From Tricharina praecox (taxonomy: Eukaryota), in contig NW_026250436.1 in the NCBI RefSeq assembly GCF_024521635.1, positions 186,001-250,000 of the forward strand: a DNA stretch of 64,000 bases, read 5' to 3'. The first letter of the stretch is position 1. The number at the start of each line of letters is the position of its first letter. The notes beneath the pieces are model-generated. The model did not search any database. It was not told the origin of the DNA and worked only from the letters and a program-made list of their open reading frames with translations. Shown piece by piece: positions 17,728 through 25,232 of this stretch. A program made the position numbers and the translations under genes.

Positions 17728-20092
17728 GATGGCTAGGGTATATTACAGTCCTCCGAGTAGGATGAAGTGGAAGAACGCGGGTGAGACGGGGGCGGGCGGC
17801 GGACGGGGCGGAGAGAGGCGGAGTTGTAGACGTTGATAGTAGAGGTATGGAGGTAGGCAAGGTACAGGTGGAGGGGTTTTTTGGGGCAGAAGAAGTAGGA
17901 TGATGAATAGGTGGCGGTAGGAGGGATGGCTGGAGGAGGTTGGGTTGGCTAGGTGGATAGGTAGTTAGGGTCTCTTCCGTCCGGAGAGAGGGAGAGAGAG
18001 AGCGAGTTCGTGACGGGGCGTTGGGAAAAACTACGAGGGCGACTAGAACGAATCGCGGTTAGCGGAGGACCGTGCTTATTGGTTGAGGGATGATGGCTGA
18101 TGATGATGATGATGATGTTATGCTGCAGAAGGAAAGTGGCGGACGAATAACAACCTCTTCTATCCTCATCCAGGTCCGTTTGTGTTCTATGGCGCGGTGG
18201 GTATGGGGAGAGATGCGGCGGAAACGGAGGGAGAGGAAGACGGGAGTGAGAGGTTGGTACAGAGTTGTCGGAGAAGAATCTTTTCCCCGTCCGGCGGATT
18301 CAGATGAGGCTGGGGGGTTGGGGTTTGAAGAGATGGAGTTTGTGGAAGTGGGGGTGGGGAGAGGGAGGTGGTTGGTTGGTGGGGGGAGGGGGACAGACGA
18401 GGAAACAGAAGGAGGAGGACGAGGAGGAGAGGAAGAGGAAGAGGGAGGAGGGGAGTGGGCTCTGGCGGTTAACCAACCACGACAATGAGACGGTGGACAG
18501 ACAGACCACCCGCCCCACCGAGAACGAGCAAGAGGATACGGCCTACCTGAAGCAGAGTACTACTGCCGGTTCGTGGGTTTGTGATGTGATATCCTTGGCT
18601 TGTTATGTACGGGACATGCACGCGCAACAGACGATTCGCGATTGGATTGGAGGGCTCTGGTCACGGGAGTGGTGGCAGTGGTTACTGAGGACAGGAGATG
18701 TACTCTAGAGCGGTTGTGTGGTGAGTGGTGGGGTTGTGCGATGCAGGTCTGCGTCGTGCGTGTGCTGCGCGTATTAGATGGAAATCTGCACAAACGGCGA
18801 GGCGTCGAGGCGGGCAACTACAAGGGTGGTTGGGAGGGGGTGGTGGTGTGAGTGGGATGTGGGATGATGATGCTGAGGTGAATGGCGAGAGAAGAGTGAA
18901 GTGAAGGTTGTGGTCACGAATACAACAGAGTAGTAACCAACCAAACACGGTAGCAAGTAATCAAAAGACGGGACGACGAAAGCGGCAGACAATCTTCAGG
19001 CCTCACCCGCCTTCTTGTCCGCCTCTCCATCTGTCCTCTCTCCCTCCGTCCGCGTCCAGTCATAACCAACCCTACCCCCATCCCCATCCAACGCTGAAAC
19101 CAGTCGTCCTTCTCCGCAATTGGGTCCCCGCCCAACTGCGTCCGCCCGCAAATCCGCCTCACTCATCATCCACACACCCACCCAGTTTCCAAACTCTACA
19201 CTGCTTCCCCATCCGAGCTCCGACATCAATCGATCTAACTTTACGCATGGAGTAAACTCTACAGTACATCATGCTTCCTAGATGGAGTACTCGGTACATG
19301 CTACCTAATACTGTAAATTGGCATCACCTGTCCGCTTCTTCATCTTCTTCTTCTTCCCTCTTCCCTTCCACCGCCACCATAGTACAAGTACCGACGACCA
19401 CGTCAGCCAGTCGTACCAATGGCCAACGGCATCCTCCCCCTCATCCCGATTCCCCCTCCTCATCCACCGTTTCCATTTCCTTATCGTACTGGTACGCACT
19501 CTACAGTACTTGTCCCCATCCCGATCTCGAAACCACATCACAACCGAGATAGATTATGCCCGAACGTCAGCTGCCCCTCCCCCTCCTCCCGCCCCTCCGC
19601 CAGGCAAGCCCCTCCCTCTCTCCATCCCTTCATCCCTTCCCTCCCTCACCCTCACCTCTCCTTCTTCGTTAGACCTTCCACTCGGCAAACCAGACGTGGC
19701 TTGGCCCCGCACGCGCGAACTACACAACCTCAGGGTTCAAGGGAAGGAAAGGCAAGGGAAGGGGAGGGGGACACCGGTGTTTCCCTTCCCTTTCAACTTT
19801 GATGTCCGTGCGCTACGGGGATCCCTGTTCCTTGTGCTATGTATGCTTGTGCTTGTTCGTGTGCTGTGCTGTGCTGTGCTGCGCTGTGCTTCTGCTTGTG
19901 CTGCTAACTGGTGCTGCTATGTACTGGTGCTGTGCTTGTGTATGTGATGTGCTGTGCTGGTCCTGGCTGGTGCTGAAGTGGTGCTGAAGTGTTTTTTTTC
20001 TCACGCGATCGCGGGCGGAGAAACAGTGGACAAGGCGGAGGCGGAGGTGGAGGACACTTGTGTCGCTTCGACTCTGCTTCTTTGGCTTCTTC

Positions 20093-20124
<32 letters not shown>

Positions 20125-20156
20125 CTTCTCCTTCTTCTCCTTCTTCTCCTTCTCAT

Positions 20157-20548
20157 TCGTTTGCCGCTTCCGCGCACCGAAAGTCCTATCGAGGCGCATG
20201 GCTGTTGGACGCCGGCTCCTGCGCGGCCGTTCGAACGGGTCGGGCAGTCGGACTTCGAGACCCCTCCATCGGAGACCTCCATCGGAGATCGTAAGCCTTA
20301 CTTCGTAGTTAAACCGCCAGTGCTGCCTGCGATGTTCTTCTGCTTCTTCTTCTTCGTCTTCTTCACTTCGTCTCCTCCTTCTCCTTCGTTTGCCGCTTCC
20401 GCGCACTCAAAGAACTCTCGAAGCGCATGGCTACTGGCCATCGGCTCCCGCAGGCTGCGCGGTCGTTCGAGTACCTAGTCGGACTTCGAGATCCCTCCCA
20501 TCGGAGATCGCAAGTCGTAAGTCGTAAGCCTTACTTCGTAGTTAAACC
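20157..20548. repeat. Degenerate ~160-bp direct duplication (20157-20315 and 20386-20548), each copy preceded by a CTT-rich tract
   Basis: Shared blocks TCGTTTGCCGCTTCCGCGCAC, GCGCATGGCT, AGTCGGACTTCGAGA, CCATCGGAGATCG and GTAAGCCTTACTTCGTAGTTAAACC. Confidence 0.9.
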
Positions 20549-21300
20549 ATCAACGGTAACAATGGTACATACTACTATATCTGCCTGCCATCGTGATGCG
20601 ATACGTACTCTACGTACTCTACTCTACTCTACATCCATAGAGTATCGCCATGTACCGTACATACGGGTGTAATCCGCGCAAACCAGATGGGGATGCGCGA
20701 GGAATACCTCTGTATGTAGGTGGAAGAAGCACAACGAATTAAATACCTCTCCATCTATGACTTTTACATAGGCACTCACTTTACACCTAGATGGTATGTG
20801 GGTATGTCCTCATCACATCCGTGAGGTGAGGAATCAGGATGCCGATGGCCGATGTCCGATGTCCGACAGTCCGATGGGATGCGGACAGGGTGCTACCTCC
20901 ACTCTACATACCTCACAGAGTGCTCGAGCGTAGAGTGGAGTGGAGTGGAGTGCCCTGACACGCCGAGCGCTGAGCAGTGCCCACGGTCAGAGCGGGGCGG
21001 GGCGGGGCGGGGCACAAGTGAACCGTCAGCCTGTCAGAGTCAGAGTGCACGTGCAAAGGCGGGGTTTCCGCCGAGTATCTATCATAGTAACTACAAGTAC
21101 ACAACAAGTCACCCAGCATAAAACTCGAAATCAATAACAATGACAATGACACAACTCCCAATTGCTCCGCAGAAAGGAAGAACCATATTTTTCCATCGAA
21201 AACATTTCCATTGACAACATTTGCATTTCCATCGAAAACATTAACATCAAGATTCAACCATCGGAATCGACGACTAAGTACCTGGTCTATGTAATGCTGA

Positions 21301-24300
21301 CTAGTATTCAAAGTTATCATCGACGCCCTTCTTGGCGTTGTTCTTCACAACGTCCTGGTTTTGATACATCTCGGCCACTTGCTGGGCGGAGGTAGCATCG
21401 TCGGGCTTCTTATCGTCGCGTTCCCTAATGAAGCGTGGGAACCTCAAGCTGACGCCCCTGCCCTTGCCCTCGACATCGGCCAGTCCCTTGGCGGCCATGT
21501 ACTTCGGGCTGAGCGAGAGGTCGGCGGTCTTGACCTCCCAGACGACCTTTGGCTCGAACCAGACGTCTGGCTGCTGCATGTTCCCCGTGGCATGGACGTA
21601 GTACGGCTTCGGTTTCTCGATCTCGAATTCCAGCAGCTGGGTGTGAAACTTGATGAGGACCTCCTCCGAGAAGCCCGTGCCGATGTTGCAGATGGTCTCG
21701 TAGTTCTGCGTGGCCGGGTTGTAGCAGGCGAGGAGGAACGAGCCGTAGACGCTCGTGCGCTTGCCTTTTCCGTGGTAGGCGCCGATCACGACGAGGTCGA
21801 GGGAGTCGCCCACGCCGTCGAGGTAGTCTTTCTTGAGCTTGAGCCAGTTGCGGGAGCGCTTCGATGGCTGGTAATAGGAGTCGGGCGTGTCGAGCATCTT
21901 GACCATGAGGCCTTCACAAGATGCTTTACAGGATTCTTCGAGGAAGGCCTGGATTATTTCGACTTCTTGGCCGTCAATGGCTGTGGCGAACGCGAACTCG
22001 CCTTCCACAGATTTGAAGGATGTGTACATCATCTTGCGGCGGTCTGCCAGACTGTCTTGGACCGTCGACTGCATGAGAGTTAGTGGCTATCGTAGCGAAA
22101 CGGATGGACGGAGAATTTACCTTTCCGTTGAGGAAGAGAAGGTCGAATCCATAGACACAGACTTTAACCTTGACGTCCTCGGCGGCAACGTCCTTCCTCT
22201 TACGCGTCTGGAGCTGCTGGAAAGGGAGGACCCTCTTCTCAACCCGGTCCCAAGCAACAGCTTCACAGTCGAGCACGAAACTCTCGACACCATCTGTCAC
22301 CCACTTATCTAGAGCAGCCAGTATATCAGGGTACTTGGGCGACAGCTCTTCCGAATTGCGGGAAAAGACCTTGGCAATCCCCTTCTTTTGGTCGATAGTC
22401 GGGAACTCGACCGAAGAGTTAGGTGCCACATAGTGGATCTGTACTCGCTCGCCGTCGTATTTGTACTCACACGTGAATCTCTTTCCCTCGAAGCGATCCG
22501 TGATTTCAGCTATCGACTTGGTGGGTTTTGCGAGCATAGGCTTGAGTGGAACACCGGGCTGGAGTTTGCAGGCGTCCTTGAGATTCATGATACCAACTTT
22601 CATGATCTCGGGGATGATGATCTCATAATTTGGTAGTTCGCTGTAGACCTCTTTGAGCATGGCTTCTGCGGCAATCATCTGTTCCAGACTGGGCGCCTTC
22701 TTGCCTGCCTTTTCCGCCTCGTGCACGATGACGGCCTGACTCAGTCCCACGATGACTGTTCTGTCCGCCAGTCCCAGTCTCAGCTTTCCCTCGAGTCCGC
22801 GAACAAGGAACTTGGCTTCATCTCCCTTGGCAGCAGACAGCATCTTTTTGATGCCGTCTACTTTGCGACCCTGACCACCATCTCCTTTGACCAACGCGAT
22901 GTCCCTGAGTCCAGTATGGACACTGCGAACAGTAAGTGGCTTCGGCGGGAACAGGGTCGTCTGGGTATTCCGACTCTTCTGCGCGATCTCGCCCAGGTCC
23001 CCAATCTGTTTATGCTCTTCCTTGAGTGTCGCTAATGTCCGTCCACACGACTCACAGATAGCCTTCATCAGCAGACTCTCGCCTATTCCCAGCTCGATGC
23101 CCTCGTAGTCCGCGGCGATTCTATTGATCATCAAGTGGATGACCAATAGTAACTCGTCGGGTGTCAGCCTCAACACCTGCCGCAGAAACAGCGAAGTATG
23201 CGACACCTTCTCGAGACGTTTGGTGGTCGATTCGATCAACGAGAACGTCGCGACCAGAGCCGCGTAGGGTATCGATGCACCGGCCTTCCAGTCAGGATAT
23301 GCATTCACGTCGTTGCCCTTGCTAGTGAGCTTCGCCTGTACCACCTTGCGCCCCTTGATAGTGATGACGGGCTTCTTGATCTCGACCTCGACGTCGCTTC
23401 CAGCTTCCACATCACTCTTGTCCGACTCGGACGCTGACTCCTCAGACTTCTCCTCTGTCTTTCCAGCTGCCGCCTTTTTGCCCTTCGCCGTAGTGGTCTC
23501 AGCCTTCACCTTCGGAGATTTCTTCGACTTCACCGCAGGTTCCTCCTCGTCATCCTGCTCGATGTCCTCTGCCTCTTCTGTCTCCTTCGTCGGCGTCGTC
23601 TTCCCCTTCACCGCCTTCTTCTTCGATTCGGGTTCAGGTGTAGCCTCCTTCTTTTTCTTCGCAAGCCCCCTCTTCGCAGGCTCCGTTTTAATCGCTGGCT
23701 CCTTCTTGGTCGCGGACACCTTGCTGGTCACGGGCTCCTTCTTCTTTGCAACAGGACTAGCCGCCGTCGTCCTCGACTTCCGTCCCCGCTTCGTGACTGG
23801 CTCCTCATCTTCGTCCTCGACTTCAGACACTTCCTTCTCGATCTTGACCTCCGCCTCCTCTTTCTCAACCTCATCGCGAGCACGTTTCTTTGCTGGCACT
23901 GCAATTAATCGTCAGCACACCCCACCTACCCCACAACAAGTGAAGCGAACATACCAGTCTTCTTGGAAGTACCATCCGCCTTCTTCGACGTCTTTTCACT
24001 TGCCAGCTCCTTCTTTGCTAACGCATCCTCGGCGTCCACGTCCACCATGACCTCATCCTGCGGTTCCTCGACTTTCACCTCATCGTCACCACCCAATTCC
24101 TGCTTCGCCTCCTTCTTGGGCTTGCTCGTCAAGACAGTCTGCTGTGGTGCAGGCTTCGCAACGCCCTTGGGGAGTGTGAAATAGTTACTGTTCGCCCCTC
24201 CCCATCAGCACACTTCGTCACAGTCCCACGATCCCGGTCTCAATCGAAAGAGAAATACCCCAGCGTCGTCTGCAGCTTGACATACCTGAGTGTAGACTGT

Positions 24301-24530
24301 TTAGGGCCTGCAGCGGCAGGCTTCTTGGGGGTGATGGGAGATTTTTTCGGGGGCATTTCGGCGGCGGTGGTGGTGGTGGTGGTGGTGGTGGTGGTGGAGG
24401 AGGAATGGATGAGTCGCTGTGTGGGTGTTGGTGACAGGAACAGGACTGGAAGTCGCGCGGGAAGTCGCGTTGGTCGTCGCAGTGTCCGTTGCAGCAGCAG
24501 CTGCGAGAGGAAAGGAAAGGCGCATCTCAT
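21301..24530 (-). CDS. CDC9: DNA ligase I (ATP-dependent), 4 exons
   Basis: Adenylation motif CEYKYDGER, plus FVLDCEAV, FDLLFLNG, CEGLMVK, WLKLKKDY, DLVVIGAY and SLRFPRF. N-terminal PIP box. Introns near 24188-24285, ~23899-23954 and ~22060-22120. Confidence 0.97.
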
Positions 24531-25232
24531 TTGGGAGGCCTTGTACTATACTCTACATGCGCGTCGGTTACGCGAGCCAGCACCGTGTGGACGTCGAGGG
24601 TTGTGGCTTGGCTGGCTGGCTGTCCCGGCGGTCGTTAGTGGCGTTTGCGAGTGTCCGAGGAACATTAGAATGGAAATCTCGGCGGTGCTGGCTACTCTAC
24701 TGAGGGGTCCGCATTGAAGTTGTACTTCCGGAATCTGGCGGAGACCAGTGGGTCCGTCATGCTGATGATATGGATTTGGGGTCTGGGACGTCGGAGGCCT
24801 TTCTCACTTGGCGACGAGGTCTTGGACAGTGGACAGTGCGCAGTGAGCTCATGATCACGTCTCTCGGGTTTGAACTTTGCATGAGCTACTAGCAGCGGTA
24901 CCGCCCCTCGAATTCCATGCTGAGCAGTCCCTCAATCACCATTTGCAAATATTCCGAATGTGTTCTCCCGTCACATCCGCAAGAACTGTACGCGTACGCG
25001 TCAAGCATCGGCGAGCTATGCCTTGTACCACCCTGCCGCCGTGGCTCATCCTCACCGGCCCACGTTAAATCTCCCGGCTCAAGACCCTGAAGGTAAACAC
25101 CAACCTTAAGCTTAACGTCTATTCTACGAACACCATCGCCTCAGGGTCCTCACCATTCCTTTAAGCTCTCACATGCGATAACCCATTCCAGCAATCCCTT
25201 CCCGCCTCTACCACCGTCTCCACGACACAGCG

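Follow-up and report, generated by a model that had tools for sequence, protein, structure and literature searches.

The window analysed here is a stretch of 64,000 nucleotides (nt) from Tricharina praecox (Pyronemataceae, Pezizales; contig NW_026250436.1, positions 186,001 to 250,000), and we describe the gene for DNA ligase I (Cdc9/Lig1) on its minus strand, in particular the first intron of this gene and the PCNA-interacting peptide (PIP) box that this intron divides. Positions are those of the window throughout. The gene model that we built has four exons (24356-24286, 24187-23955, 23898-22121 and 22068-21301), and its predicted product counts 949 amino acids (aa) via the first of two donor sites in intron 1 and 958 aa via the second. 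The Pfam domains DNA_ligase_A_N (PF04675, E-value 6.3e-46), DNA_ligase_A_M (PF01068, 1.2e-34 and 1.8e-16, the match being divided by intron 3) and DNA_ligase_A_C (PF04679, 4.5e-23) follow one another in the order found in ATP-dependent DNA ligase I. The protein is 100% identical to the partial T. praecox ligase model of NCBI (P0001) and 62-87% identical to fungal proteins deposited under the names DNA ligase, Cdc9 or DNA ligase 1. The first-pass annotation, which had recognized a DNA ligase I from the letters alone, was thus right. The NCBI model has 649 aa and begins with AYPDWKAG; some 300 residues are missing at its N-terminus, among them the PIP box and a K/E-rich linker. Taken with the RNA-like contigs described below, the window supports a full T. 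praecox ligase of 949 aa.

The PIP consensus is Q-x-x-[LIM]-x-x-[FY]-[FY]. On the gene strand, the region that encodes this motif in the window reads ATG(24356)...CCT AAA CAG TCT ACA CTC AG|GTATGTC AAG CTG CAG ACG ACG CTG GG|GTATTTC...GTGCTGATGGGGAGGGGCGAACAG|T AAC TAT TTC. Two donors, donor 1 (24285) and donor 2 (24258), lie exactly 27 nt apart in the same frame and share one acceptor CAG, which ends at 24188. Splicing from donor 1 gives ...GPKQSTLSNYF..., and splicing from donor 2 would give a PIP region reading QSTLRYVKLQTTLGNYF, in the wider context KQSTLRYVKLQTTLGNYF and GPKQSTLRYVKLQTTLGNYF. The pattern fits both products, as QSTLSNYF in the short form and QTTLGNYF in the long one. The coordinates, the donor hexamers and the two peptides reported in the first-pass annotation were all reproduced, as was its central claim that each donor rebuilds a PIP box. 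The box stands 20 residues from the start methionine in the short form and 29 in the long one, a place that agrees with those of yeast Cdc9 and human LIG1 (PMC1865074). The features of the locus are collected in the table.

Features of the DNA ligase I locus of T. praecox (window positions; joints are written as the last and first exon bases on the gene strand)
Feature	Position	Strand	Basis
Cdc9/Lig1 coding region	21301..24356	-	built model, Pfam, match to P0001; 3 introns skipped in X1 and X2
Exon 1 (short form), ATG 24356 to the base before donor 1	24286..24356	-	joint 24286^24187 in X1 and X2
First PIP half-site CAG TCT ACA CTC (Q-S-T-L), followed by AG|	24288..24299	-	homologous to copy 1 (QATLG) of 23 loci
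Donor 1, GTATGT	24280..24285	-	joint "skips 98, CT..AC" in X1 and X2
Alternative segment, 27 nt; intronic with donor 1, coding (R)YVKLQTTLG with donor 2	24259..24285	-	codon-periodic conservation in relatives
Second PIP half-site CAG ACG ACG CTG (Q-T-T-L), followed by GG|	24261..24272	-	sequence, alignment
Donor 2 (candidate), GTATTT, no G at +5	24253..24258	-	GT conserved; no contig junction
Candidate branch site CTGAT, A at 24205, 17 nt upstream of acceptor G 24188	24204..24208	-	read from sequence (consensus CTRAY)
Common acceptor CAG	24188..24190	-	sequence and contig joint
Exon 2, starting T AAC TAT TTC; gives third base of PIP position 5 and N-Y-F (positions 6-8)	23955..24187	-	joints
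Intron 2, 56 nt, GTATGT..CAG	23899..23954	-	joint 23898^23955 in X1 and X2
Intron 3, 52 nt, GTAAAT..CAG	22069..22120	-	joint 22068^22121 in X1 and X2
Upstream in-frame extension from ATG 24530, 58 aa	24357..24530	-	translation; similar in relatives' models

To see which donor is used, we relied on the assembled contigs of two sequencing runs from two studies, X1 and X2, each of which contains 0.94 of the sampled words, over the region 21200-24800. Both are labelled "RNA?", and none of the listed runs is on record as RNA; we take them as RNA-derived because their contigs skip all three GT..AG introns. The skipped stretches are 22069-22120, 23899-23954 and 24188-24285, and each is bounded by CT..AC as read on the plus strand, which corresponds to GT..AG for the gene. 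At intron 1 the joint is that of donor 1 (24286^24187), at contig depths of 71.3 and 53.7 in the two runs, and a genome-collinear contig of 155 nt (24161-24315) carries intron 1 unspliced in both, at depths of 134.2 and 21.6, such depths not being reliable as measures of expression or level. Introns 2 and 3 have no cover, and the bin depth falls exactly by the intron's share. Two soil metatranscriptomes, X3 and X4, gave no contig on the region, which speaks for neither donor.

Intron 1 is thus the only intron also seen unspliced. Its retention would stop the frame at the TGA at 24241-24239 (...QTTLGYFSFD*). The unspliced contig could reflect regulated retention, or slow splicing through two competing donors.

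The layout at intron 1 recurs in the DNA of other fungi. A scan of metagenomes with the catalytic part of the ligase gave 80 loci, of which 28, of fungal type and at 57-67% identity, allowed the PIP exon to be placed. The best match of the scan reaches 67% identity, and no close relative among the Pyronemataceae was found in it. The two-copy layout is present in 26 of the 28, all except L005 and L010, and these 26 correspond to 23 distinct loci (L003=L033, L015=L016, L040=L079). It reads CAR NNN ACN YTN GG|GTAYGT, then a linker of 7 or 10 nt, then CAR NNN ACN YTN GG|GT...., and the acceptor precedes x-[KRN]-[FY]-F. The donors are 30 nt apart in 17 of the distinct loci and 27 nt apart in six. 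Ten further loci on contigs that begin only within or behind the intron (L002, L004, L007-L009, L020, L023, L027, L030, L032) were left out of the counts, as were L043-L078 and L080 (43-48% identity, except L047). L017 (no PIP exon in 1741 nt upstream) and L026 (contig beginning past the PIP exon) were uninformative; L035, L039 and L042, at 50-52% identity, show one PIP-like motif in a single uninterrupted frame. Concerted evolution of the two copies was considered and ruled out by their consistent difference, QATLG in the first and Q[LQTM]T[LI]G in the second.

Codon by codon, we then aligned the 23 distinct loci and the window, 24 sequences in all. In both donors the G of GT, which is the third base of the preceding codon, and the T are invariant (24/24). 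Between the donors, the Q, T and L/I codons of copy 2 have entropies of 0-0.25 bits at positions 1 and 2 (1.38 at position 1 of L/I) and 0.8-1.9 bits at position 3; all four threonine codons are in use, and leucine is written TTG, CTC, CTT, TTA, CTA or CTG. The third linker residue is K or R in 22/24, encoded by AAA, AAG, AGA, CGG or CGC. Beyond donor 2, starting with the third codon, the entropy rises to 1.6-1.95 bits at every codon position, and stops occur. For the segment that begins with the K/R linker codon and ends with the Leu/Ile codon of copy 2, the pairwise ratio of nonsynonymous to synonymous differences (pN/pS) in the ligase frame is 0.42 in the 30-nt group (n=17) and 0.16 in the 27-nt group (n=7). 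Read in the other two frames, the segment gives 1.2-2.8, and an intron stretch of equal length past donor 2 gives 0.83-1.02; the 24 sequences being mutually related, these ratios and the counts are descriptive. The frame-specific pattern and its sharp boundary at donor 2 are what one would expect of a translated segment that ends in a used donor, and not of an RNA element. Codon-level conservation of the segment and of the second GT, which the first-pass annotation had put forward for checking, is therefore seen, in the low in-frame pN/pS and the invariant GT; the locus does not combine the use of one donor with a segment free of codon-level conservation, since this segment is conserved codon-wise.

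The hexamer of donor 1 is GTATGT in 18 and GTACGT in 6 of the 24 sequences, and never GTAAGT or GTGAGT; these commonest donor types would read TAA or TGA in the phase of donor 1. As a control, we took the intron that follows ...LNG[EK] in the same genes, whose donor is GT[AG]A.. in all 13 loci having it and in the window (GTAAAT). Since donor 1 never takes this form, it appears to answer two demands, and it looks to be under a dual constraint, to act as a donor and to keep the frame open toward donor 2. Donor 1 would in this respect be a clean natural case of a splice site under two simultaneous constraints. Donor 2 is mostly GTGCG[TGAC], the others being GTGTGT, GTGTGC, GTGGGT, GTACGA, GTGCAT, GTTGGT, GTCTGT and GTTGTG; it has G at +5 in 20/24 and T at +6 in 12/24, and is likewise never GTAAGT or GTGAGT. 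Donor 2 may be held weak, which would keep the constrained donor 1 dominant.

The annotated proteins of named fungi carry the trace of the same pair. A homologue search seeded with the catalytic region, and thus without bias to either form, was used, and the best 120 homologues were classed: 19 are long, 34 short (for example KQATLGRFF), four are intron read-throughs showing both copies and 63 are without the N-terminus, short models being uninformative on their own intron content. The models of Tuber indicum, T. melanosporum and T. magnatum begin with MSS.KKQTTLGYV[KN]SQTTLGRFF. Models of the type QATLGYV[KR]xxQxT[LI]G[KR]FF are found in many species of Aspergillus, Penicillium and Talaromyces, in Onygenales, and in Geoglossum, Monosporascus, Tothia, Lineolata and Pseudogymnoascus. 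The tandem strings that the first-pass annotation had named as unverified ("QATLGYV...QTTLG") do exist, as QATLGYV...QxTLG, in many Cdc9 models of Pezizomycotina. The long forms span six classes of this subphylum, namely Pezizomycetes (Tuber), Eurotiomycetes (to which Aspergillus belongs), Sordariomycetes, Dothideomycetes, Leotiomycetes and Geoglossomycetes.

The same gene has been annotated both ways in one and the same species. This is the case for A. fumigatus (P0123 long; P0152 and P0193 short), for A. nidulans (AN6069.2 long, CBF70249 short) and for the A. niger group (P0179 long, P0171 short, P0122 and P0175 read-through), and short and long models both exist for A. flavus, T. marneffei (Talaromyces), Monosporascus and Blastomyces. 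The read-through models (P0122, P0175, P0177, P0180 and P0278, from Aspergillus niger and Penicillium oxalicum) contain strings such as ...QLTLGCVCNWTSDASGSPIRLDANTGSINRRFFG... and put intron-encoded residues into the PIP box, which is an annotation artefact of the open frame. Intron 1 is in this way a systematic source of inconsistent Cdc9 N-termini across databases.

What distinguishes the two predicted proteins is the flank of the motif. Both share Q-x-T-[LI]-x-x-[FY]-F and all residues downstream. In the short form the motif is preceded by [AP]-P-K-Q or R-K-Q and stands at residue 5, after M-x-P-K, in 18/24 sequences; in the long form it is preceded by YV[KR]xx. The residue immediately before the glutamine is K or R for copy 1 in 22/24 loci and in 48/48 long models; for copy 2 it is never K, and it is S or T in 14/24 loci and 35/48 models. 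In the window, the short form has the flank GPK-Q and a serine at PIP position 5, the long form the flank VKL-Q and a glycine at that position. A serine or threonine before the glutamine of copy 2 creates an S/T-Q site that never exists in the short form (K-Q), the window itself having L-Q; S/T-Q is the consensus of checkpoint kinases of the Mec1/Tel1 type. In the structure of yeast PCNA with the Cdc9 peptide, residues 35-KPK-37 preceding Gln38 are ordered, and residues N-terminal to the Cdc9 PIP box form a beta-zipper with the C-terminus of PCNA, both interfaces being functionally important (PMC1865074). The two isoforms would therefore differ at the contact with the C-terminal tail of PCNA, because it is this flank that makes it in yeast Cdc9.

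Altogether, we propose that intron 1 carries an ancient pair of alternative 5' splice sites, of which the short isoform would be the major product and the long one a minor or condition-dependent product, and we regard this as probable. The intron divides the PIP box in phase 2, two bases into the codon for position 5, and its 5' end carries a second in-frame copy of the exon end, which would be ancient, together with the donor belonging to it (Q-x-T-[LI]-G|GT). Because the duplicated half-site brings its own donor, either donor together with the single acceptor would write a complete PIP box. Donor 1 yields the main short mRNA, the one found in the RNA-like contigs, and donor 2, kept by selection across the Pezizomycotina, would yield a minor or conditional mRNA for a protein with 9-10 extra residues, YV[KR]xxQxT[LI]G. 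The isoforms would differ in the residues that immediately precede the glutamine of the motif: the short one has P-K-Q there, and the long one has mostly [ST]-Q. The likeliest effect would be an altered seating of the ligase on the clamp through the contact with the PCNA tail. The interpretation of the first-pass annotation is supported in part, its idea that donor choice could tune clamp binding being a possibility.

Several observations weigh against this proposal. Of the two joints that the first-pass annotation had named for counting, 24286^24187 is present in both runs, and 24259^24187 was not seen in the assembled contigs of X1 and X2, assembly being known to drop rare variants. Five cDNA-like contigs from other fungi (L005, P0077, P0109, P0163 and P0246), each of 2.9-3.4 kb with an uninterrupted open reading frame (ORF) of 866-935 aa, are all short. 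These contigs could in principle come from intron-less genes; even so, the short form would be the one expressed or retro-copied. One of them, P0246, belongs to the Aspergillus glaucus/cristatus cluster, in which the A. glaucus gene model P0242 is long; a genome with the donor pair therefore yields a short RNA-like contig. A weak donor 2 would fit this uniform result. No long form contiguous with exon 2 was present in the ORF-called Logan, ENA and JGI proteins that we examined, nor did N-terminal searches with residues 1-60 of P0061 and cluster look-ups find a transcript-derived long form among the matches listed, which were solely gene-model long forms or ORF-called intron read-throughs. The long gene models are predictions and not observations, and the 24 aligned sequences are, as said, not independent. 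The donor 2 of the window, GTATTT, is one of the 4/24 without G at +5. Finally, L010 has one copy only (QASLG|GTTTGT, exon 2 beginning with NFLG), and in L005 the intron is absent at this place, QATLGKFF being contiguous in a 911-aa uninterrupted ORF on a 3377-nt contig. Donor 1 is used, then, and the use of donor 2 is suggested by the selection read from the aligned sequences.

A more far-reaching version of the proposal can be put forward tentatively. The duplicated half of the PIP box would have been kept in intron 1 since the ancestor of the filamentous ascomycetes, and donor choice would give the ligase either a basic flank (P-K-Q) or one that is mostly S/T-Q. The long isoform would be a regulated one, and its grip on the PCNA tail could be changed by splicing and perhaps by phosphorylation. 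The age of the donor pair rests here on its spread over the six classes; the common ancestor of the filamentous ascomycetes lived several hundred million years ago.

One would also wonder whether the long protein has any function. Donor 2 could be an unavoidable cryptic site, and selection could merely keep the mis-spliced mRNA encoding a working ligase. This explanation, which we consider unlikely, would account for the RNA-like contigs being short only, for the poor hexamers of donor 2, among which T at +6 is found in only half, and for the identical PIP core of both products. However, losing the second GT would be simpler than maintaining 27-30 nt of coding sequence, and yet this GT is invariant. 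Moreover, the basic linker residue has been kept through synonymous codons of both lysine and arginine, and the flank of copy 2 is systematically unlike that of copy 1, which looks like selection on the long protein.

As to Tricharina itself, the ancestral pair could have been functional and donor 2 could since have decayed, QTTLG being a leftover. We hold such a relic to be quite improbable, even if the lack of G at +5, unlike the 20/24 donor 2 sites that have it, and the missing donor 2 joint in X1 and X2 are in line with it, and even if the models of the nearest named relatives (Sphaerosporella, Pyronema and Geopyxis) are short, with a QSTLG copy like copy 1. Against it, no stop interrupts the frame from one donor to the other, and the codons for Q, T, T and L as well as GG|GT have been preserved; intron 3 is spliced with GTAAAT, likewise without G at +5, and a minor junction could escape the contigs.

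A role of copy 2 at the RNA level only is very unlikely; copy 2 would then never be translated, and would enhance splicing, offer U1 a landing pad or form a structure controlling the removal or retention of intron 1. In favour of such a role, intron 1 alone is also found unspliced in both runs, and both GT dinucleotides are invariant; but the three-base periodicity, the free third positions and the amino-acid-preserving swaps (TTG/CTC/TTA/CTA, AGA/CGG) contradict it, pN/pS is low only in the ligase frame, and the region of the window folds no better than its shuffles (z = +0.73; 147/200 shuffles at least as good). Finally, coincidence in one intron is next to impossible: dinucleotide shuffles of the intron body gave a comparable layout (any in-frame Q..[LIMV]x+GT, 15-60 nt from donor 1) in 303/200000 cases (~0.15%), which for a single intron is uncommon and not decisive, as the tens of thousands of introns per genome would hold some, but the recurrence of the layout, which 23 distinct loci share with dozens of gene models spread over six classes, is decisive at the level of sequence comparison and refutes it.

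In our search of the main texts of openly available papers, we found no description of this arrangement of donors and PIP box. The arrangement appears to be new, and its kinds, alternative 5' splice sites and the ligase I PIP box, are known. The nearest parallel for the motif is the PIP box of yeast Cdc9 and human DNA ligase I, enzymes of the same family with a motif of the QxTLxxFF type in a flexible N-terminal region (PMC1865074). Yeast has QATLARFF (residues 38-45), to be compared with QATLG+[KR]FF as the usual first copy in the fungi studied here; unlike in the Cdc9 and LIG1 of that report, the motif of the Pezizomycotina is split by an intron at the codon for position 5, and its first half is doubled together with the donor.

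For the splicing, a parallel can be drawn with SRC1/HEH1 of S. cerevisiae, where two near donors and one acceptor likewise give two mRNAs (PMC12830679, PMC3597508). However, only 4 nt separate the SRC1 donors, and the choice between them shifts the frame, whereas the ligase donors keep the frame over a distance of 27-30 nt and restore the same motif in either product. Human in-frame tandem splice sites, 3-9 nt apart, also produce subtle in-frame insertions or deletions by a choice between neighbouring sites (PMC2279118, PMC2423196); these are reportedly on the whole selected against, in contrast to the ligase pair, which has been kept with a coding-type constraint across a subphylum. Fungal SKI7/HBS1 offers another rare example of alternative splicing that is conserved throughout the Ascomycota and yields two proteins (PMC3597508), but there the 3' splice sites alternate and the proteins are functionally different, whereas the ligase pair consists of 5' sites. 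The terms ligase, CDC9 and PCNA have no occurrence in PMC3597508. A relation to PCNA that is altered by splicing is reported for variants of RTEL, PARG and p21; in these the PIP box is either present or absent, whereas both ligase isoforms keep the motif and only the N-terminal flank differs. We also considered a spliceosomal twin intron (PMC6616335) and rejected it, 27-30 nt being too short to house a complete inner intron, which would need a branch site and an acceptor of its own. Conserved alternative splicing into two proteins is rare in fungi, and here it would act on the clamp-docking peptide of the essential replicative ligase. The two isoforms can easily be told apart, as the products of reverse transcription-polymerase chain reaction differ by 27-30 nt.

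Two further features of the N-terminal region deserve mention. A second conserved Q motif lies 10-20 residues past the PIP box and looks like a degenerate Q-x-x-L-x-F; in the window it is encoded at about 24100-24150 on the minus strand and reads PAPQQTVLTSKPKK, and in relatives it is PKKQTTL[SA]F in Eurotiales and PQQS[KR]L[SA]F in other classes. On the other side, the 58-residue extension from the ATG at 24530 precedes the start used for the PIP box; it comprises MRCAFPFLSQLLLQRTLRRPTRLPARLPVLFLSPTPTQRLIHSSS, a run of ten threonines and then AAE. It is rich in R, L, S and T, and its first acidic residue is the last position. Yeast CDC9 gives nuclear and mitochondrial forms from two starts. 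From its composition, the extension (24357-24530) may possibly be a mitochondrial presequence. Comparable extensions are found in models of Geopyxis (P0012), of several species of Aspergillus (P0031, P0036, P0193 and P0255) and of Blastomyces. Contigs cover 24410-24800, and such cover is no proof of one single transcript. The poly-Thr part is encoded by a trinucleotide repeat at 24354-24409 (ACC/CCA on the gene strand), where the contigs appear to be cut, and the Geopyxis model has a Thr-rich run at the corresponding place. Downstream of the ligase gene, at 19900-20450, the ORF listing shows a low-complexity tract that reads as poly-Glu on one strand and as poly-Leu/Ser on the other.

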